Below are positions 14,566-61,900 of a stretch of DNA of 64,000 nucleotides, one piece after another (position 1 is the stretch's first letter; each line of letters starts with the position of its first letter). The position numbers and the translations under genes were made by a program. The stretch comes from an uncultured Bacilli bacterium. GTDB taxonomy: Bacteria > Bacillota_I > Bacilli_A > RF39 > UBA660. A model generated the notes under the pieces. That model made no database searches. It worked only from the letters and a program-made list of their open reading frames with translations, and was not told the origin of the DNA. The DNA lies in contig CALVQK010000009.1 of the NCBI GenBank assembly GCA_944358305.1, forward strand, positions 393 through 64,392, given 5' to 3'.

Positions 14566-16437
<1,872 letters not shown>

Positions 16438-22113: not shown

Positions 22114-22232
22114 AGTTCACCTCCAAAGATTCACTACATTTATATTTTAACATAAAAACAATCTAAATTAATTAGAATATCTTAAAATAACGACAAAAAA
22201 TGATATAATATTAGTCGAAATGAGGTGACTTT

Positions 22233-24559: not shown

Positions 24560-24579
24560 GTTATCGCTCCATAAGATAA
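24560..24579 (+). repeat. left copy of a roughly 20-nt direct repeat gttatcgctccaWWgataa (att-like)
   Basis: gttatcgctccataagataa. It shares 12 identical nt plus gataa with the site at 31728, and its gctcca core resembles the tRNA-Gly 3' end (atccgctcca). Confidence 0.5.
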
Positions 24580-24665
24580 AATCGTCGCACCAAGCGATGT
24601 TAATGATTAAATCAACGCAAGTTGATTTTTTTTGTTGCTATTGCAAAGAAAGGGTGTGATGTGGT

Positions 24666-24938
24666 ATGATTAATATTGTAAAAAAGAAAATCAATATGAG
24701 TGATGAACTCAAAGCCAAAATTAATTGGTCTTGCAAATTTAATAAGAAGTCCTATCAAATAATTGAGGGATACTTAAGGATTGTGGAACATACCAATCTA
24801 GCGTATGTAGAGCCACATAAAGTAATTATTGGAGATAAGTTATACCTATTCTTCAATGAGCAGAAACATTTTTATATAGGGAATTTAAAGAAGAAAATCC
24901 CATTGTCTGAATTATCAGAGTACATAGCAAGGCATTAA
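24666..24938 (+). CDS. hypothetical 90-aa protein, paralogue of 14132..14413
   Basis: Conserved blocks shared with the first copy. It is followed by a hairpin and then a serine recombinase. Confidence 0.45.
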   Translation: MINIVKKKINMSDELKAKINWSCKFNKKSYQIIEGYLRIVEHTNLAYVEPHKVIIGDKLYLFFNEQKHFYIGNLKKKIPLSELSEYIARH

Positions 24939-24998
24939 TGAATTGGTGAGTTTATATACTCCCACAATATTGGTTGTTTTTGTCGTATAAATAACTAA

Positions 24999-26903
<1,905 letters not shown>

Positions 26904-26921
26904 AAGGGATTTGATTAAATT

Positions 26922-27275
26922 ATGAATATTGATTATAAAAAAGTTGGAGATTATTTACTACCTAATTTGGTGATAGAAAATCAAAATTATGGAGAAATAA
27001 ACAAGTATGGATTACTAAGATTAAATTATATTAAGGAACACAAAAAAGGATTATATCAGGCACTTTTAATGAAAAATGAACTAACAAATCATCTTCTTTC
27101 AGTCAGTAAAGAATGTGAAGAAAGATTAAAAACTTTAATGGATAATTATATTAAAAATGATGAAAAACTATCTGAAAAAAGTAAAGAAAATAATCAAATT
27201 GAATGGGCAAAATTGATGAATAATTATAAAAATACTGCTGAAGAAATTATCTTAAAGGAGTTAATTTATGTCTGA
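26922..27275 (+). CDS. small hypothetical protein (possible relaxase accessory or TnpV-like protein)
   Basis: 117-aa ORF tightly linked between the recombinase and the relaxase. Confidence 0.35.
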   Translation: MNIDYKKVGDYLLPNLVIENQNYGEINKYGLLRLNYIKEHKKGLYQALLMKNELTNHLLSVSKECEERLKTLMDNYIKNDEKLSEKSKENNQIEWAKLMNNYKNTAEEIILKELIYV

Positions 27276-27338
27276 TGTTGTCATAAGCAAGCAAGGTAGT
27301 ATTACTCCCACCACTCCAAAAGAAAGGATAAACCTATA

Positions 27339-28646: not shown

Positions 28647-28663
28647 CTCTTTAAATTGTCTTT

Positions 28664-29626
28664 TTAATTATGTAACTTTTTATCTCTAACTAATCGTAAT
28701 ACATGTACTAATTCTGTTTGTTTTTGTTTTCTTTGAACTTCTTCATTATATTGTGAAATTAATTCATTTATTTTTCCAGAATAAGTGCAACTATCAACTA
28801 GATTTATTCCATTTTCAGTTATAATATTATCTAATATAGAATCTTCATTAATACTAAATGGTATTCCATTTATATTAAATACTACTGTACCTTTATCCAC
28901 TTTTGCAATAATCATTGCTTCCATAAAAATATTTTCTAGTGTTGCATCTTCAAGAAATTCAATAAAATGAACTTCAGTATTTTTATCATAATGATAATCT
29001 TTTATTGATGTATTCCAATCCATATAACGAGAAGTGTTAGGTCTTTTTAATAATTCCATATATAGTCTATTTAGAGCACTTTTAGCCTTATTTCTTTCAT
29101 ATCCAAACTTTCTTTTTCTCAAAGCATCCATTGCATGTAGAACTTTATCAGTATGCTCAAAGAACATAAAGAAATCATTTTCAATATCCCACCAAAAATC
29201 TCTATCATCTTTATAGCCAAAATATGTGTCTTCTTCATTTTTTTCTTCTTTTTGAATGTGTCTATGTAAGGAACAATATTCTTGTAATCCATATCCATTT
29301 ACTGCTAGTCTATCAACTATATTTTGTATATTTTTAAAGAATACATGTGGGGCATAAACTTTTAATGAATTACCATTTTCGTCTTTATATTGATTGAAAA
29401 CAAATACTTTGTAAAAATCTTTATTTATTGTCATTCTTCTTAAAGATTTTGGTAATGAACCCCATTCAAATTCAGCAGAGCCCATATAGTCTAGTCCTAC
29501 AATATCATCAAGACCATTTATATCTTTTTTCTCTATATCATCAACATTTCTTCTAAAATGCCCACTTTGTACTAAACGAACTCTTTTTTGAATTAGTGTA
29601 TCTCTATCTTCACCAAAAAATCTCAT
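28664..29626 (-). CDS. hypothetical protein (320 aa), co-oriented and adjacent to the HD-domain gene
   Basis: Long ORF with no recognisable family from sequence. It is separated from the HD gene by 14 nt. Confidence 0.45.
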   Translation of the reverse strand: MRFFGEDRDTLIQKRVRLVQSGHFRRNVDDIEKKDINGLDDIVGLDYMGSAEFEWGSLPKSLRRMTINKDFYKVFVFNQYKDENGNSLKVYAPHVFFKNIQNIVDRLAVNGYGLQEYCSLHRHIQKEEKNEEDTYFGYKDDRDFWWDIENDFFMFFEHTDKVLHAMDALRKRKFGYERNKAKSALNRLYMELLKRPNTSRYMDWNTSIKDYHYDKNTEVHFIEFLEDATLENIFMEAMIIAKVDKGTVVFNINGIPFSINEDSILDNIITENGINLVDSCTYSGKINELISQYNEEVQRKQKQTELVHVLRLVRDKKLHN

Positions 29627-29640
29627 ATTTTAATTACTCC

Positions 29641-30291
29641 TTATATTTTTCTGCCTTTACTTTCACCAATTTCATTATTTATAGCATAAGTTGAAACAGC
29701 TCTAAAATTATCATCGTATGGATAAACTTGTTGTCCAAATTGAAGCCACATAGTTGACCAAGAAGCACCTGTTTTAAGCAATTCTTGAACTCTTGCATTT
29801 TTCATTGTATCGTTTCCATCTTGTTTATTTAAATCAACACAACCTTCTTCATCATATAATTTACTTTGTAAATCGCATTCTAACTTGTCGCATTGATAAG
29901 CAAACATTGACTCTTTTGTGCTATGAGAGTCAAATTCTAAAAATAATTGTTCTATTTGTTTTCCATCTAATAAACCACCTAGTATTTTACTAACTGCTTC
30001 ATGCTCCATTTTTTCTTTTTCTGCTTTGGAAATTTCAAATTGTGTTAAATCACCAATAACTGTTTCTCCAAGTTCATGAACGGCTAGCATAAATATTACT
30101 TTCATAATATCTACATCATATTGGTATTCTGATTTCATAGCAATCGCAAGCATTTGAACTCCAAATATATGCTCTGCAACACTTTCAATTCTTTCTCTTT
30201 GAACATTCCAATTTTTCCAACCAGTTCTAATGACATTTTTTAACCTATTACATATAACATAGTAATTTATTACATTTTGTTCTTTTGACAT
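29641..30291 (-). CDS. HD-domain phosphohydrolase, YfbR-like 5'-deoxynucleotidase family
   Basis: ESVAEHIFGVQMLA… (metal His) and HELGETVIGD (HD-type Asp) spaced as in YfbR. Confidence 0.65.
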   Translation of the reverse strand: MSKEQNVINYYVICNRLKNVIRTGWKNWNVQRERIESVAEHIFGVQMLAIAMKSEYQYDVDIMKVIFMLAVHELGETVIGDLTQFEISKAEKEKMEHEAVSKILGGLLDGKQIEQLFLEFDSHSTKESMFAYQCDKLECDLQSKLYDEEGCVDLNKQDGNDTMKNARVQELLKTGASWSTMWLQFGQQVYPYDDNFRAVSTYAINNEIGESKGRKI

Positions 30292-30489
30292 AAAATCCCC
30301 TCGTTTCGGTAGATTATTATATTATTTTCTTCTAATTTAGTCAATACAACTGTAATATTTTGTAATAATTCTAATAAGCTATTTATTTTATTATTATTTT
30401 TTGATATAATTTTATTAACATTATTCAATCATTTTTATGTTTATATGTTATTAGCTTCGTTCATAATATTTAAAGAAGGGATTGATATT

Positions 30490-30753
30490 ATGAACGACAA
30501 TTATATTTATGTATTACTTCGTATTAATAAAAAAAATGGAGGAGTAGAAATGATAAAAAGTGAAAAAAAATTAATGAAAGAAATTAATAAAGTTTATAAA
30601 GATCTAAAAATTGAAAAAAAAGTAATCAATGTAGATAAAAGTAACATTAACTTTTCAAAAAAAATAGGTATTTATGATAACAACAAAAAAAGTTATTTAG
30701 ATAATAAAACTAGTGTCAGGGCGAGGTATGGTTATTATGGCGGATTGGAATAA
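30490..30753 (+). CDS. small hypothetical protein overlapping the start of the protease gene
   Basis: ATG at 30490 with an upstream purine-rich RBS. Its 3' end overlaps the protease start by 17 nt, implying coupling. Confidence 0.35.
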   Translation: MNDNYIYVLLRINKKNGGVEMIKSEKKLMKEINKVYKDLKIEKKVINVDKSNINFSKKIGIYDNNKKSYLDNKTSVRARYGYYGGLE

Positions 30754-31633
30754 AATTTTAAAAGAAATACAAGATGAGGAGTTTCAATCTCCTATTGATA
30801 CTGTTCGAAAGAAATATATAAAAAATCTTTCTGATTTAACTCAAAGAAATACAATATGTTATTATTCCGGATTTTTAAATTGTGCCGATCATCCAGATAC
30901 TGCTATTAATGATAGAGATTTAAATGGGTTTATGACTGTTATTCATGAAATGGATAAATCTAAAGGTCTAGATTTAATCATTCATTCTCCTGGTGGTGAA
31001 GTTGCTGCAACTGAAGCAATAGGAAATTATTTAAGAAAAATTTTTGGAAACAACATTCGTGTTTTTGTTCCTCAAATTGCAATGTCTGGTGGCACTATGC
31101 TTTCTTGTATTGGAAATGAAATATATATGGGGAAACACTCAAGTATAGGTCCAATCGATCCTCAATATGGAGGTGTTCCAGCATATGGGGTAATTCAAGA
31201 ATTCGAACAAGCAAAAGAAGAAATTATAAGCAATCCCCAATCAATTCCATTTTGGCAACCAATTATAGGTAAATATCCACCTACTTTTATAGGACAATGT
31301 TATAAAGCAATTGAATTATCATCTGATGTAGTAAGAAAATGGCTTGAAGAAGGTAGTATGTTTGAAAATGATAACAAGAAAGAACAAAAAATAACTAAAA
31401 TAATGAATTATTTAAATAATAATGAGCATACAAAAATGCATTCACGACATATTGGTATAGATAAAGCCAAAGAAATTGGTCTTAAAATTAAAGCACTCGA
31501 GTCAGATGATAAACTTCAAGATGCTATACTTTCTGTTCATCATTGCTATATGCATACATTTCAAAATACGAATGCCGTAAAGATACTTGAAAATCAAAAA
31601 GGTGTATCATTTATAATGATTGGAGAAAAATAA
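30737..31633 (+). CDS. ClpP/SppA-like serine peptidase of the SDH (S49-related) family
   Basis: HSPGGEVAATEAIG (oxyanion GG) and QIAMSGGTMLS (Ser nucleophile) in a crotonase/ClpP-fold pattern. The start is chosen at the ATG at 30737, which follows a GAGGT RBS. Confidence 0.6.
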   Translation: MADWNKILKEIQDEEFQSPIDTVRKKYIKNLSDLTQRNTICYYSGFLNCADHPDTAINDRDLNGFMTVIHEMDKSKGLDLIIHSPGGEVAATEAIGNYLRKIFGNNIRVFVPQIAMSGGTMLSCIGNEIYMGKHSSIGPIDPQYGGVPAYGVIQEFEQAKEEIISNPQSIPFWQPIIGKYPPTFIGQCYKAIELSSDVVRKWLEEGSMFENDNKKEQKITKIMNYLNNNEHTKMHSRHIGIDKAKEIGLKIKALESDDKLQDAILSVHHCYMHTFQNTNAVKILENQKGVSFIMIGEK

Positions 31634-43527: not shown

Positions 43528-45405
43528 TTATTGCAATGCAATCTCAAATGGATCTTCTTTTGTTCCATCGCCAGATGTTATTATAACGTTTGATTTTAGA
43601 TTTATGGATGGACGGACACCGTTCGCGAGCGAATGAGTGCCGTAGTCCGCAGCACCATCGCTGTACACGCGACGCACGCCAGACGTACTATATGGTGTTA
43701 AGGTCCAATAAATTGTTGTTAATCCAGTACTAGTACTTCCACCCTTTACTGCATATCTTTCGAATTGTCCTGCCATTAATTCACCCATACGAAGTAAACC
43801 TACTTTGGCACTTGTAGTAGACATAGTTGCACTGCTCATAGAAGTATCTGTATACTTAGCTAACTTGTATGAAGTACCATTACTTACTGTTCCTAAATAC
43901 CATGTCGTACTTTCTTCTATCATATCACTATAATCATTACCTAGATAACTTGTTAAATATTCTCCATTTAAGAACGTTCCTATAGTATTACTACTTGAAA
44001 ACGTTGTATTACTTCCAAAAGCACTTATTATAAATTCTCCTGAACTCTTTAATGGCTCGACACTGGTTATCTTAGTTAACCCTGGCGTTTCGTGACTTAC
44101 TATGCGATATAGATTATTTTCATTATTTCCAAATCTTATATATTCTCCACTATATCTTGTATTCAATAAAGTGCCTGATAAACTATTATCATTGTCTCCT
44201 TCTAAGCGATAGGGATTTTCTTCTGTTCCATCACCATCTACAATTTTAACATTAGATTTTAGATTTATTGATGGACGGACACCGATCGCGTCCGAAGGGT
44301 TGTAGATGTCCGTATAACCATCACTGCTCACGTCACGCACGTAAGACGTACTATATGGTGTTAAGGTCCACCAATAAAGTCCATTATTTAAATAGCCATT
44401 ACTATAGGTTGTTCCATAATAACTAGATTGATATTCATACATATTAAGTAATCCTACGGCAGAAGTTACTGATGTTGACTCATCTGGTCTTGTTATACTT
44501 CCTAACTCTCTATTATCTTGAGTGGCATCCCACCTAGCATCAGTTACTATAAAGTTTTCATAATTTCTTAAATTACCAAGGAAACCATCTACTGTTGTAT
44601 CGTTTAACCACTCTTCCATATAACTTCCTGCAAAATCTGTACTACCACTTGAATAATTAATTGCACTTATATTCCATTGAGTTACTAATTTAACTGTCTT
44701 TGCTTCATTATTAACAGACACCGCTCTCCATAATTTACCACTATACCATATATAATTATTTGGATCTTCTCCTGTTATAAAAGTAGCAACCCCATCATCA
44801 TATTGGTTTTCTTCTGGAATATTATCAAGTAATACTGTTCCAGCTTCTTTCGCTCTTTCTTGAGACACTTCTACTCTTAAAACTCCGCTAAATACTTGTC
44901 CTCCATAATTACCATCTACTTCATCTGTTATCCACAAGTTTAAACTATATGTATTAGTTTCTCCTCCTGCTATGGTTCCACTATCTAACACTCTATTTGA
45001 ATTAGCACCTATTATAGTAAGTAAAGTTGCGCCACTGTTCTTTCCATTTTTATTTAAATTATATTTTAAATACATATCATCTATTCTGGTATCTGCATCA
45101 CCAATAGTGTTATCATCTAAATAAATAGTATAATCTACTGGCTTATCACCATTATTTCTTAATTCAAATGTTGATGGTGTTAAATTCATACCATCTTCAT
45201 CACTTAGTCCTATAGCATTATCTAAAGTTATGCCTTCACTTGTTTCATTTAAGACTAGTTCTAATTCTCCTACTTTTACTATTTGATCCGATCCGTTTAA
45301 ACGAGTAGAAAAGTAAGCATAACTTATTGCAATAATCAATATTATTATTATCAATATACTTATTACTAAAGTAATTATCTTCTTCTTTTTATTATCTTTC
45401 TTCAT
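43528..45405 (-). CDS. secreted TasA/camelysin-like N-domain protein, paralogue 1, with two C-type variable cassette modules
   Basis: Signal peptide with an AxA-type cleavage site. The mature N-terminus and following region (VKVGELELVLNETSEG…) match the TasA pattern (GTLDLSAKEN…). The conserved core is DDGVATFITGEDPNNYIWYSGKLWRAVSVN. The module WWTLTPYS-[variable]-GVRPSINLKSNV occurs twice (internal and C-terminal). Confidence 0.6.
   Translation of the reverse strand: MKKDNKKKKIITLVISILIIIILIIAISYAYFSTRLNGSDQIVKVGELELVLNETSEGITLDNAIGLSDEDGMNLTPSTFELRNNGDKPVDYTIYLDDNTIGDADTRIDDMYLKYNLNKNGKNSGATLLTIIGANSNRVLDSGTIAGGETNTYSLNLWITDEVDGNYGGQVFSGVLRVEVSQERAKEAGTVLLDNIPEENQYDDGVATFITGEDPNNYIWYSGKLWRAVSVNNEAKTVKLVTQWNISAINYSSGSTDFAGSYMEEWLNDTTVDGFLGNLRNYENFIVTDARWDATQDNRELGSITRPDESTSVTSAVGLLNMYEYQSSYYGTTYSNGYLNNGLYWWTLTPYSTSYVRDVSSDGYTDIYNPSDAIGVRPSINLKSNVKIVDGDGTEENPYRLEGDNDNSLSGTLLNTRYSGEYIRFGNNENNLYRIVSHETPGLTKITSVEPLKSSGEFIISAFGSNTTFSSSNTIGTFLNGEYLTSYLGNDYSDMIEESTTWYLGTVSNGTSYKLAKYTDTSMSSATMSTTSAKVGLLRMGELMAGQFERYAVKGGSTSTGLTTIYWTLTPYSTSGVRRVYSDGAADYGTHSLANGVRPSINLKSNVIITSGDGTKEDPFEIALQ
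43612..43688 (-). other. GC-rich, A-depleted hypervariable cassette A (C-terminal module of paralogue 1)
   Basis: Encodes SGVRRVYSDGAADYGTHSLAN with codons GGC GTG CGT CGC GTG TAC AGC … TCG CTC GCG AAC. GC is roughly 60% against an AT-rich gene background. It is sharply bounded by the conserved AT-rich ccatatagt (PYS) and ccatccataaatctaaaa (PSINLK). Confidence 0.6.
44275..44351 (-). other. GC-rich hypervariable cassette B (internal module of paralogue 1)
   Basis: Encodes STSYVRDVSSDGYTDIYNPSDAI. It is co-linear with cassette A at DNA level, with differences almost entirely in codon positions 1-2 of NNC codons. Confidence 0.6.
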
Positions 45406-45418
45406 TATTTACTCCTTT

Positions 45419-47326
45419 CTACTCTGATAAAGCAATTATAAATGGATTTTCTTTGGTACCTGTTCCTGATGTTATTATGACATTTGATTTTAGATTCATG
45501 GATGGTCGAGCCCCGAGCGAATAACTCGAAGGTGAATAGTAATAAGCATTACCACTGCCGCCGACACACCAAACACTCGACGAACTATATGGTGTTAAAA
45601 TCCAATAAGATATTGTTAATCCTGTACTAGATGTTCCTCCCTTTACCGCATATCTTTCAAATTGTCCTGACATTAATTCTCCAAATCTCAATAACCCTAC
45701 TTTAGCTTCCGCTACATTTGAGGTTGTTGCAGTTCCACTTGCATCTGTATATTTTGCATTCTTATATGAGTAGGAACTACCGCTTCCTACAGTTCCAAGG
45801 TACCATGTAGTACTATCTTCTATCATATTAGCATAAATACTATCTACATAGTTTGTTAGATATTCTCCATTTAAAAATGTATCTACTGTATTTGTACTTG
45901 AGAATGTTGTATTACTTCCAAAATTCATTGTTATAAATGTACCAGAACTTTTTAGTGATTCGGCACTGACTATCTTTGTTCCTGTTCCATTTTCGTGGCT
46001 TACTATTCTGTATAAATTATTTTCATCATTTCCAAATTTTATATATTCTCCACTGTATCTACTTGATAACAATGTTCCTGAAAGGTTAGTATCATTATCT
46101 CCGTTTAAGCGATAAGGATTATCTATTGTTCCATCACCATCTACAATACGAACACTAGATTTTAGATTTATAGATGGCCGAGCCCCGTACACATAGCCCG
46201 AAGGCGAATAGTAGAATGCAAGACCATTGTAGTTGACATTCCGAACACTTGACGAACTATATGGGGTTAAAGTCCACCAATAAAGTCCATTATTTAAATA
46301 ACCATTACTATAGGTTGTTCCTCTATAACTTGATTGATACTCATACATATTTAAAAGCCCTACTGCATCTGTTACTATCATACCATCGTCCCTTGGTCTT
46401 GTTATGCTTCCTAAATCAGTAGCATCCATTGTCGCATTCCACTTAGCATCTGTTACAATAAAGTTTTCGTAATCTCTTAAATTACCTAAGAAACCATCTA
46501 CACTGGTATCATTTAACCACTCTTCCATATAACTTTCTTCAAAAGCTGTATTCCCACTTGCATTATAAGAAATAGCACTTATATTCCATTGTGTTACTAA
46601 TTTAGTTGTTCCTGCTTCCTTATTAACAGACACTGCTCTCCATAACTTTCCACTATACCATATATAATTATCTGGATTTTCTCCTGTTATAAAGGTATCT
46701 ATTCCATCATCATACTTATTTTCTTCAGGAATATTTTCAAGTAATACTGTACTTGCCTCTTCTCCTACACTTTGACTTCCTACTACTCTTAACTTTCCTT
46801 TAAAGACTTTGCCACTAGCTTCTTCAGTAGTTGCATCATAGTCTATCCAGATTCTTAAGGTATAATTAATAGTTTCATCAGGTGCGATTGTTCCAAAGTC
46901 TACTCTTCTATTAGGATTACTTCCCATAGTTGTCATATTTCTAGTCATAAATGTTTCATCATTTCTTGTTAGACTATATCTTATACTAGAGTCTGGGATT
47001 CTACTTTCTCCTTCACTTAACTCTATATCATCTAAGTAGATTGTATAATCTGTATCTATCTTTCCATTATTTACTATACTAAAGTTAAAACCATTAAGAT
47101 TCATTCCTTCATTATCTGAAAGTGGTATTTGTTTCTCTAAAGTAAGTTCATTTCCTTCTTCTAATACTAAATCAAGAGTTCCTACTCTTACCAAATATTC
47201 TTTATCTCCTTGTAGTGTTGTTGTTAGGTAAGCGAATGCTATTCCTATTAAAAGAAGAATTATTATTACAAGCCCTATTATTATATATTTCTTATTTTTC
47301 TTTATTGCTTCTTTCATTACATTCAC
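45419..47326 (-). CDS. secreted TasA/camelysin-like N-domain protein, paralogue 2, with two variable cassette modules
   Basis: Same architecture as 43528..45405, with high protein identity in the conserved regions and 13 nt intergenic. Confidence 0.6.
   Translation of the reverse strand: MNVMKEAIKKNKKYIIIGLVIIILLLIGIAFAYLTTTLQGDKEYLVRVGTLDLVLEEGNELTLEKQIPLSDNEGMNLNGFNFSIVNNGKIDTDYTIYLDDIELSEGESRIPDSSIRYSLTRNDETFMTRNMTTMGSNPNRRVDFGTIAPDETINYTLRIWIDYDATTEEASGKVFKGKLRVVGSQSVGEEASTVLLENIPEENKYDDGIDTFITGENPDNYIWYSGKLWRAVSVNKEAGTTKLVTQWNISAISYNASGNTAFEESYMEEWLNDTSVDGFLGNLRDYENFIVTDAKWNATMDATDLGSITRPRDDGMIVTDAVGLLNMYEYQSSYRGTTYSNGYLNNGLYWWTLTPYSSSSVRNVNYNGLAFYYSPSGYVYGARPSINLKSSVRIVDGDGTIDNPYRLNGDNDTNLSGTLLSSRYSGEYIKFGNDENNLYRIVSHENGTGTKIVSAESLKSSGTFITMNFGSNTTFSSTNTVDTFLNGEYLTNYVDSIYANMIEDSTTWYLGTVGSGSSYSYKNAKYTDASGTATTSNVAEAKVGLLRFGELMSGQFERYAVKGGTSSTGLTISYWILTPYSSSSVWCVGGSGNAYYYSPSSYSLGARPSMNLKSNVIITSGTGTKENPFIIALSE
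45506..45586 (-). other. GC-rich hypervariable cassette C (C-terminal module of paralogue 2)
   Basis: Encodes SSSSVWCVGGSGNAYYYSPSSYSLGA. TCG, GGC and CTC GGG GCT CGA codons sit inside an AT-rich gene. Confidence 0.55.
46178..46258 (-). other. GC-rich hypervariable cassette D (internal module of paralogue 2)
   Basis: Encodes SSSSVRNVNYNGLAFYYSPSGYVYGA. It is co-linear with cassette C. Confidence 0.55.
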
Positions 47327-49123
47327 CTACCTTATTGTTGCTACTAAACGGAAAGCATCATTTCTACTATTACCCCCAACAGCACTATTACTAATTTCAA
47401 AATTAAAAATTCCCGCTTCAATACTATAATTATAAATTCCTCCACGTAATTGCCATGGGTATTGTTCTCTTACTAAACCACGATAATCACTATACCAATT
47501 ATTAGTCTCGTATAAAGCATGGCTCAAACATTCATTTCCACTACAAGCTGTTAACATGTTATCAGTTGTATATTTATCATAATATTTTGAGTCAGGCATA
47601 GAAGAAAAACCACTATCTGCAATTAAATCATTATAATTTGCCATTGTATATTCATGAGCACCACCACTCATATCATATATCCCATAGATATTTCCAGTAG
47701 TAGATGCGCCTGTTCCATTTATATCTACATTATATTGATATTGACATCCATAATCTGTGCTATCATTACTTGGAGCACCATAACTACAGCCTGTTATAAA
47801 TTGATCTGATTTGTTTTGATATATTTCTTTATTCGTTCCACTAAAGTCTTCATTACCTAACTTTCCATATTTAGATTGAGATAGATATGCAACTATTCCC
47901 CATTCACTATTCTTCATCATATGCGTATCTGTTGTACTCTCTATCCCATATCTATTACCCGCATTATTCATCTTTAAACTCACATTAAAAGCATTACTTA
48001 CATTTATATTTCTCCAACTAAAGGCATTAGGCTTTATAATTACATCCAAATTAGCAGTATTGCCACCACCATCTACTTCACTTGGATCACTACTACTTGT
48101 CTCAAACTTTCCTACCCAGATTCCTCTTAACTCTTCATCTCCAAATGTAAAAGCAGCTGGTGTATACCAACTATCATCACTTATTCCTTCACTTACTATG
48201 TATTTTGCACTTCCTCTATCTTTTGTATTTTCACTAACAAACTTTACATCTATTTCTCCTGGTAGTGCTTGGGTTGGAGTTGTATCTAAATAGGTTCCTT
48301 GTTTTCCATAATAGTTTGTCCCATCTTCACTTCCTATTGTATATGAATATCTTGGTATCCATACCCACATTGTCTCTATATCATCCATATTTACTACTGT
48401 TCCTACACTTGCATTCTTATATGCACTTCTTGTTGATTCTGATACTGTTACAGCATTTGCCCACATCAACTCTTCATAATTATACCAACTATTATTTATA
48501 TTTGTTCTATCTGCTTTTACCCAGTTACTTCCATCATAACTTACTGGTATCATTCCTTCATCTAACATTGGTGCATTTGGACTATTCTGTTCTCTATCAT
48601 AACTTGTTACTACTATCTTACTTTGATATATTGTTCCTTGTGCCTCATTCCCTGCATCCTCATCTAACCACATATACAAAGTATATGTTACTGTATCGCT
48701 TGGCTCTAATACATCTTCTCCTATTATTTCAAAAGAACCTATCCCATAATCACTTACTCTTATTACTCCACTATCATAGCCATTATTTCCTGTTATTTTC
48801 ATCTTTAAATTTGAATTACTTAATGTATTATTACTATCTTCTTCTAATGATACATGGTAATAAGCATTTATATTTCCTGTATTTGTTACTGTAAAAGTAT
48901 AAGGAGTTGTTTGTAGACCTTCTTTATCAGACATAGGAGCGCTATTTTCTATACTTATATTATCACCTTCACTAAAATCAACTTTTAATATTCCTGCTGT
49001 TAGTGTTATTTCTTTATCTCCTTCTATAGTCATAGTTAATAAGGCATAACTTGCACCTATTAATGCTAACACACTTATTAATATTATTACTACTGATATT
49101 ACTATATATTTTTTCTTTGTCAT
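47327..49123 (-). CDS. secreted TasA/camelysin-like N-domain protein, paralogue 3 (divergent C-terminal half, no variable cassette)
   Basis: N-terminal …ITLTAGILKVDFSEGDNISIENSAPMSDKEGLQTTPYTFTVTNTGNI… aligns to TasA (…TFASGTLDLSAKENSASVNLSNLKPGDKLTKDFQFENNGSL…). The C-terminal half is unrelated to the modules in the other paralogues. There is 0 nt intergenic to the upstream gene. Confidence 0.55.
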   Translation of the reverse strand: MTKKKYIVISVVIILISVLALIGASYALLTMTIEGDKEITLTAGILKVDFSEGDNISIENSAPMSDKEGLQTTPYTFTVTNTGNINAYYHVSLEEDSNNTLSNSNLKMKITGNNGYDSGVIRVSDYGIGSFEIIGEDVLEPSDTVTYTLYMWLDEDAGNEAQGTIYQSKIVVTSYDREQNSPNAPMLDEGMIPVSYDGSNWVKADRTNINNSWYNYEELMWANAVTVSESTRSAYKNASVGTVVNMDDIETMWVWIPRYSYTIGSEDGTNYYGKQGTYLDTTPTQALPGEIDVKFVSENTKDRGSAKYIVSEGISDDSWYTPAAFTFGDEELRGIWVGKFETSSSDPSEVDGGGNTANLDVIIKPNAFSWRNINVSNAFNVSLKMNNAGNRYGIESTTDTHMMKNSEWGIVAYLSQSKYGKLGNEDFSGTNKEIYQNKSDQFITGCSYGAPSNDSTDYGCQYQYNVDINGTGASTTGNIYGIYDMSGGAHEYTMANYNDLIADSGFSSMPDSKYYDKYTTDNMLTACSGNECLSHALYETNNWYSDYRGLVREQYPWQLRGGIYNYSIEAGIFNFEISNSAVGGNSRNDAFRLVATIR

Positions 49124-50899: not shown

Positions 50900-51562
50900 T
50901 TATTTTAATACTTTCTTTAAAGTAACTTCTATAGGATAAGCTTCACCTATTCCTGATATTTCTGTCATTCCTGTTAATTTATGAACATTCATACATTCTA
51001 AATTTCTAGATATAAAGAAATGATTTAACATCTCTCTATTATTCTTAACATACATCTCCTGTCTTACTAAAGTAGAGATATCATCTAAAGCTAGCACCTG
51101 ACACAATCTATTTATATTAACTTCTCTTGGAAATCTTCCTGCTACTACCCTAGTTGGCAGATAACGATCATTACCAAATGGATCACAAATATCACACACA
51201 CTATCTATATTATAAGGATCTTCACAATTCACATTAATAAATGCCATAGGAAAATCTTTATAAGGAAAAATAGAAGAAGTTACAGGAACATCATAAGAAA
51301 AATTAACCATAACTTCATCATCAAAAGGCAAACTAGATTTATATAGTGTTGCAACTTTATCATTATAAACTATTTTATTATAAGAAGAATTTAACTGTGG
51401 TTGTTTTAAATTAATATTGTTTTTTATACTATCGCCTTGTAACATAACAATATCATAACCTTCTTCACTAATAAAATCTGTTATATAAGCTTTTCTTTTC
51501 TTATCTTTAATAGGAACAAAACTTCTTCCTAAATTCATACTAAGTATTCTAATATTTCCCAT
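50900..51562 (-). CDS. hypothetical protein, distant endonuclease/exonuclease/phosphatase (EEP)-like, paralogue 1
   Basis: N-terminal ILSMNLGRSF…DIVMLQGD resembles an EEP N-terminus, but the canonical LQE glutamate is Gly. It is 40-45% identical to the adjacent ORF. Confidence 0.35.
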   Translation of the reverse strand: MGNIRILSMNLGRSFVPIKDKKRKAYITDFISEEGYDIVMLQGDSIKNNINLKQPQLNSSYNKIVYNDKVATLYKSSLPFDDEVMVNFSYDVPVTSSIFPYKDFPMAFINVNCEDPYNIDSVCDICDPFGNDRYLPTRVVAGRFPREVNINRLCQVLALDDISTLVRQEMYVKNNREMLNHFFISRNLECMNVHKLTGMTEISGIGEAYPIEVTLKKVLK

Positions 51563-51581
51563 AATCTTTCTCCAAATTAAT

Positions 51582-52229
51582 TTATTTCAAAACTTTCTTA
51601 CGTACTATAGATGCTTCAATAGGATAAGCTTCACCTAACTTTAATGTTTCTGTCAATCCCACTAACTTACGAACATTTTCTGCTTCTAAGTTTCTTGATA
51701 TAAAGAAATGATTTACCATATCTCTATTGTTTTTAATATGCGTATCTAGCCCAATTAAAGTAGAAACATCATCTAAATCAAATTGATCACAAAATAGATT
51801 TGTATCAAAAGCCCTAGGAAATCTACCGGCAACTATTCTACTTCTTACATAATGAACATCTTTCTCTTTAGAATAAAGATCACACGCATCATATAATTCA
51901 TCAATATTTTTTAAATCCTTACAATTTACATTAACAAGAATTACGGGTCTATCAATATTAGAAATAATTGAACAGTTAAGTATATTTGTAGCTCTACTTT
52001 CAACAATTAATCTATTAGATACAAGAGTAAGAACATCTTTAGAAGAATCAGCATAATCATAACCTAAATCTTTAAAAAAACTATTTCTTCCTACTCCATT
52101 ACCTTGTAACATAACAACATCATATTTTTCTGTATCAATTTTCTCCCTCAAAAACTCTTTTTTTCTTTTATCTTTAATAGGAATAAAACCTCTTCCTAAA
52201 TTCATACTAAATATTTTTAAATTTTCCAT
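51582..52229 (-). CDS. hypothetical protein, EEP-like, paralogue 2
   Basis: Start chosen at the MENLKIFSMNLGRGF ATG at 52229, which has a GGAGG RBS. It shares the DVVMLQGNG feature (Q-G in place of Q-E). Confidence 0.35.
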   Translation of the reverse strand: MENLKIFSMNLGRGFIPIKDKRKKEFLREKIDTEKYDVVMLQGNGVGRNSFFKDLGYDYADSSKDVLTLVSNRLIVESRATNILNCSIISNIDRPVILVNVNCKDLKNIDELYDACDLYSKEKDVHYVRSRIVAGRFPRAFDTNLFCDQFDLDDVSTLIGLDTHIKNNRDMVNHFFISRNLEAENVRKLVGLTETLKLGEAYPIEASIVRKKVLK

Positions 52230-52270
52230 AACTTCCTCCAAATGTGCCTCTATTATAATACAAATATCTT

Positions 52271-54883
52271 CTAAACACAACCAAGTTTTCCTTTACTTTT
52301 AAGATATAATTTTCTAAAAAACTCTACTGGTATCACGGAAAAAGCACAACATAACATAATTTCTACCTCTTTTAAGCTTAAAGATGTTGTCCTAAACAAA
52401 TCTCCTCCAAAATAAATAAGAATAATCTGTACTACTACTATAAAGGCTATAACTATCATAAAGACTTTATTTGATAAAAGGTTTGCAAAAATATTAAGAC
52501 GACTTGTTCTTGCATTAAAACTGTTAAATATCATCATAAAGATAAATAACCCAAAGAAAGCACTCATAAAGTAAATATCATCTCTTCCCTCTCTAAAGAA
52601 GGAATGAATAAATGGACTTTTTAAAAAGAAAATACAAAGTAAAAAGGAATAAATACTAGTAAACACAATTTCATGAATCATATAACTATTAAGAATCTTC
52701 TCATCACGTTTCTTAGGTGGTTCTTCCATATATTCTAAAAGAGGTGCTTCATAAGAAAAAGCAATACCGGCAAGAGTATCCATAACCATATTAACCCAAA
52801 GCATTTGAATAACAGTAACAGGACTATCTACCCCAATAAAAGGGCCTACTATCGATAAAAAGACAGCACAAAAATTAACTGTTAATTGAAAAATAATAAA
52901 TTTACGAATACTTTTAAAGATTGTTCTTCCATAGAAAATCGCTTTTACAATAGAATTAAAATTATTATCAAGTAAAATTATATCACTGGCTTCCTTAGCA
53001 ACTTCAGTCCCACTTCCCATACTAAAACCAACATCGGCCTTTTTTAAAGCTGGGGCATCATTAACACCATCTCCTGTCATACCTACAACAAGACCTAACT
53101 CTTGACTTAATCTTACTAATCTACTCTTATCAGTAGGTAAAGCCCTAGCAACAACAGATAGATTTGGAATAATCTCTTTAATCTTTTCATCACTTAAATT
53201 ATTTAATTCACTACTAGTAAGAACAATATCTTTATCACTTTTTATAATACCAGCATCTTTTGCAATAGCAACTGCTGTTTTCTTATTATCTCCAGTTATC
53301 ATAACTGTCCTAATACCAGCTTTTCTAACTAATTCTATACCATCACTAACTTCTTCTCTTAACTCATCTTTAATAAATAAAAGGGAAATAAAACAAAGAC
53401 CACTTCCATCATTAGAACAAACCATCAAAACTCTAATACCTTTACTAGCATAATCATTAATAATATCAGTTATTTTATTTTTATTAATAAAACTTACTTT
53501 CTTACCATTAGGTGCTATATAATATTTACATTTATCTAATAACACTTCAGGAGCCCCTTTATAATAAGTTATTTCCTTACCTTCTTCTAACACTTTAGTA
53601 TAAGAATATTTATTTTTACTATCAAAAGGAACTTCTTTAATTTTTTTTAAAGAGTAATTTCCTTCTTCTAAATAATTAACAACTGCCCTATCAGTAGAAT
53701 TTCCTCCAATCCAAATATTTTTAACATCATCATAAACACAACTAGTATTAGAAAGAATTGCTTTTTTTAAAATATTATAATAATTAAAACTATTCTCAAG
53801 TCTATTCTTATCTTTATAATAATCTAAATTACCAAACATAACCCCTACTACTTCAAGTTCCCCTTTGGTAAGTGTCCCTGTCTTATCAGTAAATAATATA
53901 TTTAAACTTCCAGCTGTTTCTATTCCCATAAGTTTTCTAACTAACACATTATCTTTTAACATTCTTTTCATATTACTAGATAAAACCAAAGTAATCATCA
54001 TAGGTAAACCTTCAGGAACAGATACTACTATAATTGTAACAGCAAGAGTCAATGCTTGAAGAAAATATGCAAAAAGTAACGATGTATCAGAAATAGTAGC
54101 AATTATCCTTGTCATCTCAAAATTATTATCTATTACTAAAACTGAAAAAAGATAGGAAAAAGCGACAAGAAACGCTCCAACATAACCTATTCTACTAATA
54201 ACTTTAGCAAGATCTCTAAGTCTTAACTTTAAAGGACTTTCTGGTTGTTTTTCTTGCAACTCTAAAGATATTTTTCCATAAAAAGTATTAACCCCAACTT
54301 TTGTAACTATCATCTCTCCAACCCCATGATAAATTACACTACCTCTTAAAAGTTCATTATTAGTACTAGGATTAAGGCCAGAAACAAAAGCCTTTTTATA
54401 AACCTCTTTACTCTCCCCTGTAATAGATGATTCATCTACACTAACTTCTCCTTTAATTAAAACCCCATCAGCAACTATCCTATCACCTGAGTCTAACAAA
54501 ATAATATCAGAAACTACTACTTCATCAATAGGTATAAGTAAAACTCGTCCCTCACGTCTTACCTTTACTTTAATCGCTTCCGCTTCTTTCTGTAATTTTA
54601 AAAAAGCCTTTTCACTTCCATATTCAGAGATTGTTGAAATAAAAGATGCTAAAAATATCGCTATAACAATACCAACAGTCTCATACCAATCAAAATCTTG
54701 AATTAAAAATATTGTTTTAATACCAAGAGCAATTAAAAGTATTTTTATAATAGGATCTCCTAAACTTCTAATTAGTTGTTTAAAAAAGCTATCTTTCTTA
54801 AATTGTACCAAAGCATTACTACCATACATTTCTCTTGACTTAATTACTTCTTCTCCGCTTAAACCGTTACTATTTATTTTCAT
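52271..54883 (-). CDS. calcium-translocating P-type ATPase (PMCA/SERCA-like, P2-type)
   Basis: DKTGTLT phosphorylation motif, TGES-like actuator motif, TGDN, GDGVNDAPALKKADVG and 10 predicted TM helices. Confidence 0.9.
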   Translation of the reverse strand: MKINSNGLSGEEVIKSREMYGSNALVQFKKDSFFKQLIRSLGDPIIKILLIALGIKTIFLIQDFDWYETVGIVIAIFLASFISTISEYGSEKAFLKLQKEAEAIKVKVRREGRVLLIPIDEVVVSDIILLDSGDRIVADGVLIKGEVSVDESSITGESKEVYKKAFVSGLNPSTNNELLRGSVIYHGVGEMIVTKVGVNTFYGKISLELQEKQPESPLKLRLRDLAKVISRIGYVGAFLVAFSYLFSVLVIDNNFEMTRIIATISDTSLLFAYFLQALTLAVTIIVVSVPEGLPMMITLVLSSNMKRMLKDNVLVRKLMGIETAGSLNILFTDKTGTLTKGELEVVGVMFGNLDYYKDKNRLENSFNYYNILKKAILSNTSCVYDDVKNIWIGGNSTDRAVVNYLEEGNYSLKKIKEVPFDSKNKYSYTKVLEEGKEITYYKGAPEVLLDKCKYYIAPNGKKVSFINKNKITDIINDYASKGIRVLMVCSNDGSGLCFISLLFIKDELREEVSDGIELVRKAGIRTVMITGDNKKTAVAIAKDAGIIKSDKDIVLTSSELNNLSDEKIKEIIPNLSVVARALPTDKSRLVRLSQELGLVVGMTGDGVNDAPALKKADVGFSMGSGTEVAKEASDIILLDNNFNSIVKAIFYGRTIFKSIRKFIIFQLTVNFCAVFLSIVGPFIGVDSPVTVIQMLWVNMVMDTLAGIAFSYEAPLLEYMEEPPKKRDEKILNSYMIHEIVFTSIYSFLLCIFFLKSPFIHSFFREGRDDIYFMSAFFGLFIFMMIFNSFNARTSRLNIFANLLSNKVFMIVIAFIVVVQIILIYFGGDLFRTTSLSLKEVEIMLCCAFSVIPVEFFRKLYLKSKGKLGCV

Positions 54884-56006: not shown

Positions 56007-57911
56007 TTATTGAAGATCAATCTCAAACGGATCTGATTTAGTACCTGTACCAGAAATTATCACCACGTTAGATTTTAAATTCATAGAAGGTCGCACCCCG
56101 AACGCTCTGGTCTGATCGATGCCGTACGTGCCACCATTGTAGTAGACACCACACACGCGAGACGTACTATATGGGGTTAATGTCCAGTATGTTGTATTAT
56201 TACCATATCTATCAAATTGTCCTGACATTAATTCTCCCAAGCGAAGTAAACCTACCTTTGCTTCTGTAGTTGTTGAAGTTGTACTACTCATATTAATATC
56301 CGTATATTTTGCTAGTTTATATGATGTACCACTTCCCACAGTTCCTAAATACCATGTAGTACTCTCTTCTATCATATCCGTATATGCACTATCTACATAA
56401 CTTATCAGATATTCTCCATTTAAGAATGTTCCTATCGTTGTACTACTTGAAAATATTACATTACTTCCAAAAGTACTTGTTATGAATGTACCAGAATTTT
56501 TTAGTGGTGTTGCGCTTACGATTTTTGTCCCCGTTCCATTTTCTTGACTTACTATTCTATATAGATTGTTTTCGTCATTTCCAAATCTTATATATTCCCC
56601 ACTGTATCTACTTGACAACAATGTTCCTGAAAGATTAGTATCATTATCTCCATTTAAGCGATAAGGGTTATCTATTGTTCCATCGCCATCTACAATACGA
56701 ACGCTAGACTTTAAATTTATAGATGGGCGAACCCCGAGCGCGGTGGACGAATTGAGGGTATTTGGGGTACCATTGTCGACGACATAACGCAAGACAGACG
56801 AACTGGCTGGTGTTAATGTCCACCAATCAGAGCCATTATTTAAATAACCAAAGCTATCAGGTCTTCCCGTATAACTTGTCTGCTGATATTCATACATATT
56901 AAGTAATCCTACAGCATCTATTACTACTGTACCATCATCACTAGGCCTTTCCATCTCTCCTAAAAAAGTTGAATCCGTTGTTGCATTCCATTTAGCATCT
57001 GTTACAATAAAGTTCTCATAATCTCTTAAATTACCTAAAAAACCATCTACACTTGTATCATTTAACCAGTCTTCCATGTAACTTCCTTCAAAAACTGTAT
57101 TTCCACTTGCATTATATGGAATTGCACTTATATGCCATTGAGTTACTAACTTTGTTGTTCCTGCTTCATTATTTACTGATACTGCTCTCCATAGCTTTCC
57201 ACTATACCAAATATAGTTATTAGGGTCTTCTCCTGTTATAAAGGTATCTACCCCATCATCATAAGTACTTCCGCTAGTTAAATTCTCTATTACTGTCTCT
57301 CCTGCTGTTGGTGGTTTGTCTCCACTTTTACCATAAACATTTACTTGTATCGTAAATTGTAATCCTCCTCCATCTCCTTGAGGATTATATCCTTCATCTA
57401 CATACATTCTAAGTCTATAATTATTACTTTCACTACTTGTCATACTAGATGTATATAAACTCATCTCTCTTGAAGGACGCCCTGTGTATGTATTTTCTGT
57501 TGTCTCTTCATTATATGTCTCAGGACTCATTAACTGTTCTTCGCCCGTCTCTGTTAATCTTGTTAGATATAACTTTATATTAGATCCATCTATTGTCCCT
57601 TCCCCTACTTCTTTAGCACTTATTTCATAGTTGATATTTACATCACCTGTTATTTCACTACTTACTGTAAAATCAAAATATTCTCCTGGATTTAATCTTA
57701 CCATTCCTGTTTCATCTGCTGTTGGTAACGCTCCATTTAAACTTATTGTATTACTTTTTTCTTCATATGTCATTGTTATTGATCCTGTTGTTATAGTATT
57801 TGGTGTATTACCTGCTCTACTAAAACTAAACGCTGCAAAGCTTACTCCTATTATTGCCAGTAGCATTACAACTAATATAACTATTATTACTATATTTTCT
57901 TTCTTCTTCAT
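56007..57911 (-). CDS. secreted TasA/camelysin-like N-domain protein, paralogue 4, with two variable cassette modules
   Basis: Same domain order as the 43.5-47.3 kb paralogues (signal peptide; TasA-like ITTGSITMTYEE…; core DDGVDTFITGEDPNNYIWYSGKLWRAVSVN; two WTLTP…G[VA]RPS[IM]NLKS modules). Confidence 0.6.
   Translation of the reverse strand: MKKKENIVIIVILVVMLLAIIGVSFAAFSFSRAGNTPNTITTGSITMTYEEKSNTISLNGALPTADETGMVRLNPGEYFDFTVSSEITGDVNINYEISAKEVGEGTIDGSNIKLYLTRLTETGEEQLMSPETYNEETTENTYTGRPSREMSLYTSSMTSSESNNYRLRMYVDEGYNPQGDGGGLQFTIQVNVYGKSGDKPPTAGETVIENLTSGSTYDDGVDTFITGEDPNNYIWYSGKLWRAVSVNNEAGTTKLVTQWHISAIPYNASGNTVFEGSYMEDWLNDTSVDGFLGNLRDYENFIVTDAKWNATTDSTFLGEMERPSDDGTVVIDAVGLLNMYEYQQTSYTGRPDSFGYLNNGSDWWTLTPASSSVLRYVVDNGTPNTLNSSTALGVRPSINLKSSVRIVDGDGTIDNPYRLNGDNDTNLSGTLLSSRYSGEYIRFGNDENNLYRIVSQENGTGTKIVSATPLKNSGTFITSTFGSNVIFSSSTTIGTFLNGEYLISYVDSAYTDMIEESTTWYLGTVGSGTSYKLAKYTDINMSSTTSTTTEAKVGLLRLGELMSGQFDRYGNNTTYWTLTPYSTSRVCGVYYNGGTYGIDQTRAFGVRPSMNLKSNVVIISGTGTKSDPFEIDLQ
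56091..56168 (-). other. GC-rich hypervariable cassette E (C-terminal module of paralogue 4)
   Basis: Encodes SRVCGVYYNGGTYGIDQTRAFGV with CGC GTG TGT GGT GTC TAC TAC … GCG TTC GGG GTG CGA codons. Confidence 0.55.
56727..56808 (-). other. GC-rich hypervariable cassette F (internal module of paralogue 4)
   Basis: Encodes SSSVLRYVVDNGTPNTLNSSTALGV. GTC GTC GAC … ACC GCG CTC GGG GTT CGC codons. Confidence 0.55.
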
Positions 57912-58986: not shown

Positions 58987-61900
58987 TTATCTTGACTTTA
59001 TTAAAGACTTATTTCTATAAGAAATATACATCAAAATGCCACCTATTAATATTAAAATTCCACCAGTTAAATAAATATATGTAGCATTACTTCCTGTGTT
59101 TGGTACTTCTATAGGTTTAGAATTAAACATAACTGCACTTTGAATATCACCAGTTTCTAACACTTCAAAATCAACAACAGAAGTATTTAAAACATAACCA
59201 TCTGGGGAAATTGTTTCAATTAATGAATAATTTCCTACTGGAAGTTTTTCTATATAATGTGGTGTATCAGTAGAAGTCCACTCATCAACAACTTCTCCAT
59301 TACTATTTATTATTACTAAATGAGCACCTTCTACTTCTTCACTATTAGCAATATCAAGTTTACTTATCTTTACTTTTGTAAAATCATTAACATAATTTAT
59401 TATATCTACATTATTACTATTACTTACACTAAAATATATTGGATTATTATTAATAATTACCCCTTCTGGTACTCCCGTTTGTTTTAATACATAATCCCCT
59501 AAAGCTAATTCACTACTAGTATAGACATCTTCCGTAGTTGTAAACTCATCTATTACTTCTCCATTAGTTGTTTCTAATCTATAACTATAATCACTAATAC
59601 CATTAGTATCTACTGTTAAAACTCTATTATTAACACTTATTGTAGTTATATCATTACTTATATTAACAGTTTGTACTTCTCCAGACTCTAATACTCTAAA
59701 AGTTATAATAGATCCTGTTCCCACATATCCTGCAGGTGCTTCTAACTCAGTTAAACTATATATACCTGGAGTTAATCTTTTAACTACATAAGGACTATTA
59801 GTACTAACAAAAGTAATTGGCTCCATTATACCATCTTCTCGTGCTAATCTCATCGTCGCTCCACTTATATATTCCCCTGTTCTTGCATCTATTTTGCCTA
59901 AGTTTACTGTAATAGGCCTATTTCTTATAACAAGATCATAATTAGGATTATCATCACTAATAGTTACTTCATATCTAGTATTATCTACTATATAACCATT
60001 AGGAGCTTCTAATTCTCTTACATAATATGTACCTTCACTCAAATTACTAAGAGTATGAGCAGTTTCCGTAGTCCTAAATGTTTCTATTACTTCATTACCA
60101 TCACTAATTTCTAACAATGCTCCACTAACCGCTTCTCCTGTTTCACTATCTATTTTTCTTATCGTTAAACCACCTGTCGTATTAGAAATAGTATAAACAG
60201 AAGAAGAGCTATTAGATGAATTAAAGTTTATCTCTACTACCTCATCAGTTTTAATATAACCGGCTGGTGCTTCAACTTCTTCTAAATAATAAGTACCATA
60301 AGAAAGGCCTTCTATTACATAAGGAGCATTACTAGTAGTAAATGTTTCAACTTCTTCTCCATCACTATCTGTAAGTCTTAATCTTGCTCCAGAAACATAG
60401 GAACCACTACTAGCATCTACTTTGCCTAAGTTTAATTTTGTTTTTTCATTCTCTATAACTACTTGAATATTAGTAGTATTTTGATCTACTACAAAACTTT
60501 CTCTATTACTTAAAGGAACATAACCATCTGGAGCAACTAACTCTTCTACATAATAAGTACCAGGATCTAACCTATCAATAGTATAAGGACTATCAGTAGT
60601 TGTAAATGTATCAATAACTGAACCACTGCTATTAGTTATTCTAAGTCTTGCTCCACTTATTGCCTCTCTTGTATCTTTATCAACTTTACTAATAGTTATT
60701 TGATTATTAGAATTATAGAAAGTAACAGTCTTAGCTTCCGTTTCATTACCACTTATATTGAAGGTAACTTCACTATTACTTAAAGTATAACCATCTGGAG
60801 CTTCCACTTCTATTACTTTATAATCCCCTGGTTCTAAACCATTAACTCTATGAGCACTACTACCACTAGTCCATTCATCTATAACTTGATTATCAGATAC
60901 TCTTATTAACCTTAAAACTGCTCCACTAACAAAATTATTATTACTAGCATCTCTTTTCTCTATCAATACTTCATTTAACTCATCCCAAAAGTCAACAGTT
61001 ACCATAGTATGACTACTATCAACAGTAAATTCTTGTTCATTAGTGCTTAATAAATAACCAGGAGGAGCTTCTACTTCGACAACTCTATAAGTTCCTTCTG
61101 CTAGATTAGAAATACTAACATAATCATCTTCTGTTGTAACTGTATCAACTACTCTACCATCACTATCTAAAATATTTAAAACTGCTCCTGCTACTGGATC
61201 TCCTGTATCAATATCACATTTTCTTATAAGAACTTCAAAAGAAGAATTACTAAGAGTTCTACTAATATTTAAATTACTATCAGTAATAACAACACTAGTA
61301 GTAGCATTATCTATATAATAACCATCAGGTGCTTCTAATTCTCTTATTTCATATTCTCCAGGTAATAAATTAGAAATAATATGATCAGAAGTAGTAGAAG
61401 TAAATGTATCTACAACTTGATTAGTAACAACACTTCTAACTTCTATTCTTGCTCCTGCAAGAGCATTATTACTATCATCTACTTTTTTTATTGTTAAACT
61501 TCCTGTTGGCATAGTTACACTACTAGATACTGTCTTTTGTTTTGCAACTGGCATAAGTGCTGCTGCCACTGAACGTTGCATCTCTTCTGTTGGTGGTGTA
61601 TAACTATAAGCAGTATATTCTGTATAATTAACAACTACATTAATATTAACAGTTATAGGACTAGATATATTTGCAAGATTAACTCTTAATCTAAATCCTT
61701 CACTGCTATCTATTTCTCCTGTAACTACACTATTATTACTATCAACTACGGTGGCAGCACTATTATCAACACTAACTCTATAATTATCATAATCTACATT
61801 TGAATTAACAGTTATTGTATCTGTTATTAAATATCTATTATCACTACTTAAATGAAAATCACTACTATCAATACTAAAAGTTGGATTTATAGTAACTGGA

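Follow-up and report, generated by a model that had tools for sequence, protein, structure and literature searches.

The prototype diversity-generating retroelement (DGR), Mtd/Brt/Avd of Bordetella phage BPP-1, places adenine-specific variation in a C-terminal variable region (VR) of a lectin fold, using a template designed around AAC codons and a GC-rich initiation of mutagenic homing (IMH) site at the 3′ end of the homology between the VR and the template repeat (TR), and the cassettes described here can be likened to these features. In the DGR of Treponema denticola, the target TvpA has a lectin domain of the FGE-sulfatase type, seven targets are remote, and both the reverse transcriptase (RT) and the TR are known. 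Cellular DGRs with targets over 100 kb away from their RT have been documented (PMC5758913). Pfam domain DUF6273, which is C-type-lectin-like, is a target of gut-phage DGRs, the VR lying at the C-terminal end of the domain (PMC10743442, PMC11792537, bioRxiv 10.1101/2024.10.15.618418), and the targets taken for comparison were tentaclins and the Mtd-like proteins of phages nd4 and nd12, together with those of the Faecalibacterium prophages Lelie, CP11, Roos and Pioen and of Toutatisvirus. We analysed a stretch of 64,000 nucleotides (nt) from an uncultured Bacilli bacterium (GenBank assembly GCA_944358305.1, contig CALVQK010000009.1, positions 393 to 64,392; hereafter the window), in which three genes for DUF6273 surface proteins, g1, g2 and g3, contain six short cassettes of deviating composition, and we consider it highly probable that these cassettes are DGR VRs remote from their element.

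The window proteins share with the gut-phage targets the Pfam domain, the C-type-lectin-like fold and the position of the VR at the C-terminal end of DUF6273. The phage targets are receptor-binding or decoration proteins with TR and RT inside the phage genome, where one TR is able to serve two VRs, whereas the window genes are chromosomal, have no RT nearby, encode two DUF6273 domains that each bear a single VR, and occur as at least three paralogues per genome. They also differ from BPP-1 in lacking avd, brt and an adjacent TR and in having two VRs per gene, and from the Treponema DGR in that TR-like copies in relatives of the window adjoin a target and not an RT. In the IgA protease of Thomasclavelia ramosa (PDB 9qa6), an N-terminal DUF6273 is fused to an M64 peptidase and is not known to be diversified. 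The cassettes would be a new cellular case of the known DGR targets. Their layout is unusual, in that every protein has two VRs, there are several paralogues, and copies of the template adjoin a target that has no RT next to it; a literature search returned no link between this two-VR, RT-less layout and either this lineage or TasA-like proteins.

Each of the three proteins, of about 630 amino acids (aa), consists of a hydrophobic N-terminal helix, a beta-rich region and two DUF6273 domains; in g1, these are a transmembrane or signal helix, a beta-sandwich region that may be of the TasA type, and two C-type-lectin-like domains. The Pfam score for DUF6273 was 34.0 bits in g1, 30.7 bits in g2 and 37.9 bits in g3, all above the gathering threshold of 23.5 bits. 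Every DUF6273 domain carries at its C-terminal end the module W-x-L-T-P-[YA]-S ... G-[VA]-R-P-S-[IM]-N-L-K-S, giving six cassettes in total, and these are placed in the C-type-lectin fold at the solvent-exposed C-terminal end of the domain. A first-pass annotation of the window had described paralogous open reading frames (ORFs) with two such modules each, one internal and one C-terminal, and both the ORFs and the modules were confirmed, although not all modules open with WWTLTPYS as it had stated, the C-terminal ones starting with YWTLTP or YWILTP. Proteins of this type are likely adhesins or ligand binders.

In a window of 27% GC, the six cassettes, each of about 84 nt, had 48-61% GC and 15-22% A, compared to 31-33% GC and about 40% A in the remainder of g1-g3, and they accounted for six of the nine 84-nt stretches of the window with at least 50% GC; the other three were a stretch outside these genes (Table 1), a tRNA-Gly and the tail of a Gly/Ser-rich protein. 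C was found at 54 of 170 third codon positions in the cassettes and at 109 of 1727 elsewhere (Fisher 2e-20), and A at 12 of 170 and 779 of 1727, respectively (Fisher 5e-26). CGN codons encoded 11 of the 12 cassette Arg residues, the exception being a single AGA in g3, whereas Arg outside the cassettes was mostly encoded by AGA. These counts agree with the earlier description of sharply bounded, GC-rich and A-poor cassettes with NNC codons and with CGN in place of AGA, although the G+C content of about 60% given there applies to the C-terminal cassette of g1 alone and is too high for the others, those of g2 having 48-49%.

The internal and C-terminal cassettes of g1 differed at 20 of 84 nt, with 8, 10 and 2 differences in codon positions 1, 2 and 3, and A was present in one of the two copies at 13 of them, which reproduces exactly the 20 differences, 18 in positions 1-2 and 13 with A, that had been counted by hand. 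Seven codons were altered at positions 1 and 2 together, and none of 100,000 permutations contained as many. The cassettes showed what a template of AAY codons would produce: positions 1-2 varied while the third base stayed fixed, and A was avoided in the framework codons. The g2 pair differed at 21 of 72 core bases, with more third-position differences than the g1 pair by reading, and the g3 pair was far less co-linear than that of g1; the C-terminal cassette of g3 has probably decayed, judging by its CAG and AGA codons.

The same pattern extended to the protein family. Searching at E<=1e-10 gave 3,202 homologues, nearly all from gut metagenome assemblies in ENA, with a few bearing the name 'Candidatus Onthousia' (Bacilli incertae sedis), and a protein-family search of viral contigs found no relative. 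Among 120 homologues, protein entropy had its maxima exactly at both cassettes, and 123 cassettes from these homologues fitted the framework YS[ST]SxVRxVxxxGxAxxxxPSxxxGVRPS. The residues at the x positions were led by N (19%), Y (18%), S (17%) and D (8%), while K, E, Q, M and W, which NNC and NNT codons cannot encode, made up 3.6% there and 15.1% elsewhere. Where loci were read as DNA, framework cassettes had 48-63% GC and four cassettes of atypical sequence had 36-45% GC, so the GC-rich composition is not demanded by the protein itself.

Alleles of an orthologue in related genomes showed variation restricted to the cassettes. The proteins P0048, P0049, P0067, P0070 and P0071 were at least 96% identical outside the cassettes and only about 50% identical inside. 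At the DNA level, alleles in the loci L032, L033, L034 and L035, the first three of which are syntenic (efp-gene-PfkB), had hundreds of identical bases on either side of the C-terminal cassette and about 20 differing sites within the 75 nt of its VR, all in positions 1-2 of NNC or NNT codons, with no framework base varying. L033 and L034 were separated by one single-nucleotide polymorphism (SNP) in 1,866 nt, and it was located in the C-terminal VR. The internal cassette of P0070 had 1 mismatch to the framework of the C-terminal cassettes over 51 specified bases, and hence one template would serve both cassettes of the gene. In another cluster, P0265, one of 11 strains (P0329) had four changed residues, all of them towards the 3′ side of the cassette, which would fit a partial retrohoming event.

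From three alleles a template could be inferred as TCT AAC GTG CGT AAC GTG AAC AAC AAT GGC AAC GCG AAC AAC AAT AAT CCG ACC AAT GNN AAC GGC GTG CGG CCA, and its first 23 bases were used to scan metagenome contigs. The scan gave one match, in locus L036, where an AAC-rich sequence, AGTACGTCTAACGTGCGTAACGTGAACAACTTTTGGCTTCGCGAACAACAACAATCCGACCAATGCTAACGGCGTGCGGCAT, lies about 65 nt past the stop codon of a family gene and agrees, by reading, with the inferred template at most positions. A template of the AAC-rich kind proposed in the first-pass annotation, here predicted from the alleles of relatives, thus exists as DNA in another metagenome. With this template as reference, 20 of 24 A positions and 5 of 57 non-A positions were variable among the three alleles (Fisher 9e-11), and in the g1 pair of the window 14 of 24 A positions and 6 of 57 other positions differed (Fisher 1.6e-5). 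The homology between template and cassettes begins near ATAGT and ends within the GC-rich GGCGTGCGGC, which are the sharp compositional borders reported earlier, and the GC-rich end resembles an IMH, as far as its sequence goes.

Template-like sequences were found in four loci directly behind a leader (TAGGCTATAATTAGTTTAAATAAATTATAGTAGGGAATTA), a 45-nt element between genes, TTAGGCTATAATTAGTTTAAATAAATTATAGTAGGGAATTACCAA, that contains an inverted repeat of 8 bp. This element is about 95% conserved between loci, compared to only about 75% identity of the adjacent family genes, and it could be the leader or promoter of a template RNA. In L037 it is followed by a template-like stretch of about 66 nt, whose start matches the g2 framework, the first 11 codons of the internal g2 cassette agreeing with the framework of this remnant; in L039 by a shortened template; and in L001 by merely 16 nt of template. 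A hairpin and a run of T come next in L037 and L039, and promoter and terminator scans around the template elements gave nothing informative. A scan of genome contigs of species representatives, which do not include the source genome of the window, with the g1 framework matched only L001, from another species. The 16 nt after its gene, AGTACGTCTAACGTGC, were at first a candidate chance match, but comparison with L036, L037 and L039 showed them to be a truncated TR behind the same leader. About 85 nt beyond the template of L036, an out-of-gene remnant encodes GTSTKQDPFTIALS*, the typical C-terminal tail of the family, which suggests that the template originated when the 3′ end of a target gene was duplicated. 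Viral contigs scanned with the framework, the TR prefix and the 45-nt leader gave no match or chance matches in GC-rich contigs, blastn and tblastn of phage records gave no match, and the 39-aa 'members' of one protein cluster, examined as candidates, resembled neither family members nor templates.

DGR-clade RTs are RVT_1 proteins with the [LIV]GxxxSQ motif. The first-pass annotation had stated that the window contains neither RT nor TR, and this was confirmed: reading of all ORFs, with Pfam searches of the unannotated ones, revealed no RT, and degenerate-pattern and adenine-aware scans of both strands returned the cassettes and A-rich noise but no TR. Since both are missing from the window, the cassettes would be remote targets. 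Rfam families in the window were limited to one tRNA. Among about 39 related loci, the sole RT adjoining a family gene is a 423-aa protein in L037, which was rejected as the diversifying enzyme: its PQGGLISP and YADD motifs and the flanking Rfam intron domains D1-D4 (113 bits) and D5/D6 mark it as the protein of a group II intron; the start of an intron in L001 was likewise rejected as a diversifying element, being group II intron RNA by Rfam. In two different species, a group II intron lies within about 1 kb of the template element, on its downstream side. A search with synthetic Asn-rich template peptides gave two short ORFs from unrelated organisms, one of which led to L031 (Logan DRR595517_53079), a complete and unrelated DGR made up of an accessory gene, a template and an RT. 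Its template encodes SSNVWNVNNNGNFNNNNPTNSNGFRP, with the same framework as the window cassettes, and the design of the cassettes is therefore that of a standard lectin-type VR of DGRs. This also shows that synthetic Asn-rich peptides can pull templates out of protein databases.

Taken together, the predictions of the DGR reading that could be checked were borne out in the window or in its relatives, apart from the location of the enzyme. A template RNA bearing the cassette framework, with AAC or AAT at the diversified codons, would be copied by the DGR RT with misincorporation opposite adenines, and the resulting complementary DNA would replace about 84 nt, with borders between CCATAT and AGT on the 5′ side and between CGN CC and A TC on the 3′ side. 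Framework codons that avoid A (GTG, CGT, GCG, TCG and GGC) would then leave a GC-rich, A-poor cassette in a genome of 27% GC, and because a single TR would serve both cassettes of a gene, these would share their framework despite the divergence of the surrounding domains. In relatives, a TR or its remnant lies about 65-100 nt downstream of an efp-adjoining paralogue, behind the conserved 45-nt leader. The anatomy of the cassettes, the fold, the cassette-restricted variation among alleles of relatives, and a TR-like sequence with adenines at the variable sites are observed; we infer that this genome has, or once had, an RT and that this enzyme wrote g1-g3. A more specific and rather speculative arrangement, which we regard as unlikely on balance, is a DGR network with detached templates, in which small stand-alone template-RNA genes would be situated directly downstream of a target paralogue and the RT would be far off or supplied by a mobile element. 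Such a template gene would consist of the conserved 45-nt hairpin leader, the AAC-rich template and a terminator, and a lineage would have templates of more than one type, with g1-type and g2-type frameworks, to serve several two-VR surface proteins scattered over the chromosome.

A number of observations weigh against reading the cassettes as remote DGR VRs. No DGR-type RT was seen in the window or in about 39 related loci, within about 10 kb of the family genes, nor did an Avd-like gene stand out in the window or around any of these loci, although no formal test for it was made. The template-like stretches of L001, L037 and L039 are truncated, and the near-full-length one of L036, which may be a decaying copy, carries one extra nucleotide and, compared to the VRs of the neighbouring gene, about 10 mismatches outside its adenines. 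Most clusters at 90% identity retain their cassettes; among the 11 strains of cluster P0016 the internal cassette was the same and the C-terminal cassette showed two shared substitutions and one recombinant (P0127, with a swapped C-terminus). The window's own g1 and g2 cassettes were unchanged as well. Two ONAT22-1 samples encode a protein identical to g1, which has no variant inside its 90% cluster; one ONAT22-1 contig matched the window at 100% identity over 14.7 kb, and the other (sample SAMEA6814404, 12.6 kb aligned) had 28 SNPs, none of them in the g1 and g2 cassettes. The 28 SNPs were all confined to a 470-nt patch inside the gene upstream of g2, and this patch has the look of a segment acquired by recombination from a paralogue, one like those of the pair in L025 (5926-9734). 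In alleles 90% identical to g3 (clusters P0190 and P0191), the C-terminal cassette was identical while the N-terminal half was mosaic, and the internal cassette had four amino-acid differences. The population comparison proposed in the first-pass annotation thus gave cassette-restricted variation in the related orthologue and in one strain of P0265, and invariant cassettes for g1, g2 and the C-terminus of g3. Diversification in the family looks episodic, and in the window strain it looks rare or over; the cassettes appear static, with DGR firing rare or the DGR lost, and thus quiescent or orphaned in this strain. That an intact trans-acting DGR elsewhere in the genome is now diversifying g1-g3, with the invariance being a sampling artefact of few consensus assemblies, is possible but clearly less probable. 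It would be consistent with the undiverged framework of the g1 pair, whose mere 2 third-position differences point to recent writing, with the turnover of VRs between strains of relatives and the partial change in P0329, and with the remote targets already known (PMC5758913), whereas the identical cassettes in two other sample assemblies, even in the strain carrying SNPs in a neighbouring gene, the frozen C-terminal cassette of g3 and the lack of an RT in the window or related loci argue against it.

Exchange between paralogues is common in the family and explains part of the cassette differences; a 300-nt recombination tract surrounds the internal cassette between L032 and L033, which means that paralogue exchange also occurs in the very alleles that carry the restricted VR changes. 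We nevertheless find it improbable that no retroelement is involved and that the cassettes are hypervariable lectin loops shaped by gene conversion between paralogues and diversifying selection, like cassette-based antigenic variation. This tract, the swapped C-terminus of P0127, the mosaic halves of the g3 alleles and the 28-SNP patch would all be accounted for, but A depletion, restriction to NNC and NNT codons, untouched synonymous sites of the framework, the seven double changes in the g1 pair, the near-absence of K, E, Q, M and W, and the intergenic AAC-rich copy with adenines at the variable sites would be left unexplained. The sharp compositional boundaries could also suggest that the patches are foreign DNA, or reflect selection on local DNA or mRNA structure, unrelated to protein diversification. 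This is very hard to reconcile with patches that respect the reading frame and correspond to one another codon by codon, that occupy the same structural position in thousands of homologues, that have family counterparts of normal composition when their sequence is atypical, and for which searches of phage records and viral contigs gave no similar DNA, and we give it hardly any weight.

The coordinates of these features are collected in Table 1 along with other parts of the window. An integrated-mobile-element-like region follows the tRNA-Gly and contains two large serine recombinases, a Mob_Pre protein and a MobA/VirD2 relaxase. It also encodes an AAA_13 protein and an AlwI-type restriction enzyme accompanied by a D12 adenine methyltransferase. 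A further probable adhesin is encoded 1 kb upstream of g3, an LPXTG-anchored protein of 1,159 aa in which nine SpaA-type repeats are combined with a thioester (TED) domain. Two adjoining paralogous genes of about 220 aa, with no Pfam match, are found between an ABC-F ATPase and a P-type ATPase.

Table 1. Positions of the genes, cassettes, template-associated elements and other features (window coordinates unless a locus is named).
Feature	Position	Strand	Description
g1	43528..45405	minus	625-aa surface protein
g1 C-terminal cassette, YSTSGVRRVYSDGAADYGTHSLANGVRP	43609..43692	minus	61% GC, 15% A; framework common with g1 internal cassette
g1 internal cassette, YSTSYVRDVSSDGYTDIYNPSDAIGVRP	44272..44355	minus	52% GC
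g2	45419..47326	minus	635-aa tandem paralogue, architecture as g1
g2 C-terminal cassette	45503..45589	minus	49% GC, 16% A
g2 internal cassette	46175..46261	minus	48% GC
g3	56007..57911	minus	Third paralogue, 634 aa; 8.7 kb away from g1/g2
g3 C-terminal cassette	56088..56171	minus	56% GC; CAG and AGA codons
g3 internal cassette	56724..56807	minus	57% GC; PASSS variant
Upstream gene of the operon-like array	47327..49123	minus	Shares N-terminal signal and beta-sandwich part; no DUF6273, no cassette
28-SNP patch	48230-48698		Within the upstream gene
45-nt element, L001	287-330
45-nt element, L036	5776-5825
45-nt element, L037	11940-11985
45-nt element, L039	11922-11965
C-terminal tail remnant, L036	5600-5640	minus	Out of gene
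Group II intron, L001	1-76	minus
Group II intron, L037	12906-14784	plus	Encodes 423-aa RT
DGR of L031	267-2795		Accessory gene, template and RT
L031 accessory protein			240 aa, basic
L031 template	~1060-1160		Called as 57-aa ORF
L031 RT			453 aa; IGFQTSQ and YMDD
Other GC-rich stretch	4375-4458
Integrated-mobile-element-like region	13947-31633
tRNA-Gly	13947-14020
Serine recombinases	14575..16437; 25023..26903
Paralogous ~220-aa genes	50900-52280	minus	No Pfam match
LPXTG-anchored protein	58987-62466	minus	1,159 aa

DGR discovery usually starts at the RT, and targets that lie far off or have outlived their RT are missed; the present case shows that the compositional and codon footprint alone suffices to spot DGR-written cassettes. 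Template remnants beside targets without an RT provide a concrete case in which to ask how DGRs decay or act in trans, and if the layout with detached templates were true, it would escape RT-anchored DGR finders, and many cellular DGR targets could be hidden. Beyond gut phages, the lectin-type targets with DUF6273 would now include surface proteins of an uncultured lineage of gut Bacillota that are chromosomal, multi-copy and provided with two VRs, and given their likely role as adhesins or ligand binders, their diversification would bear on interactions with the gut host or with phages.

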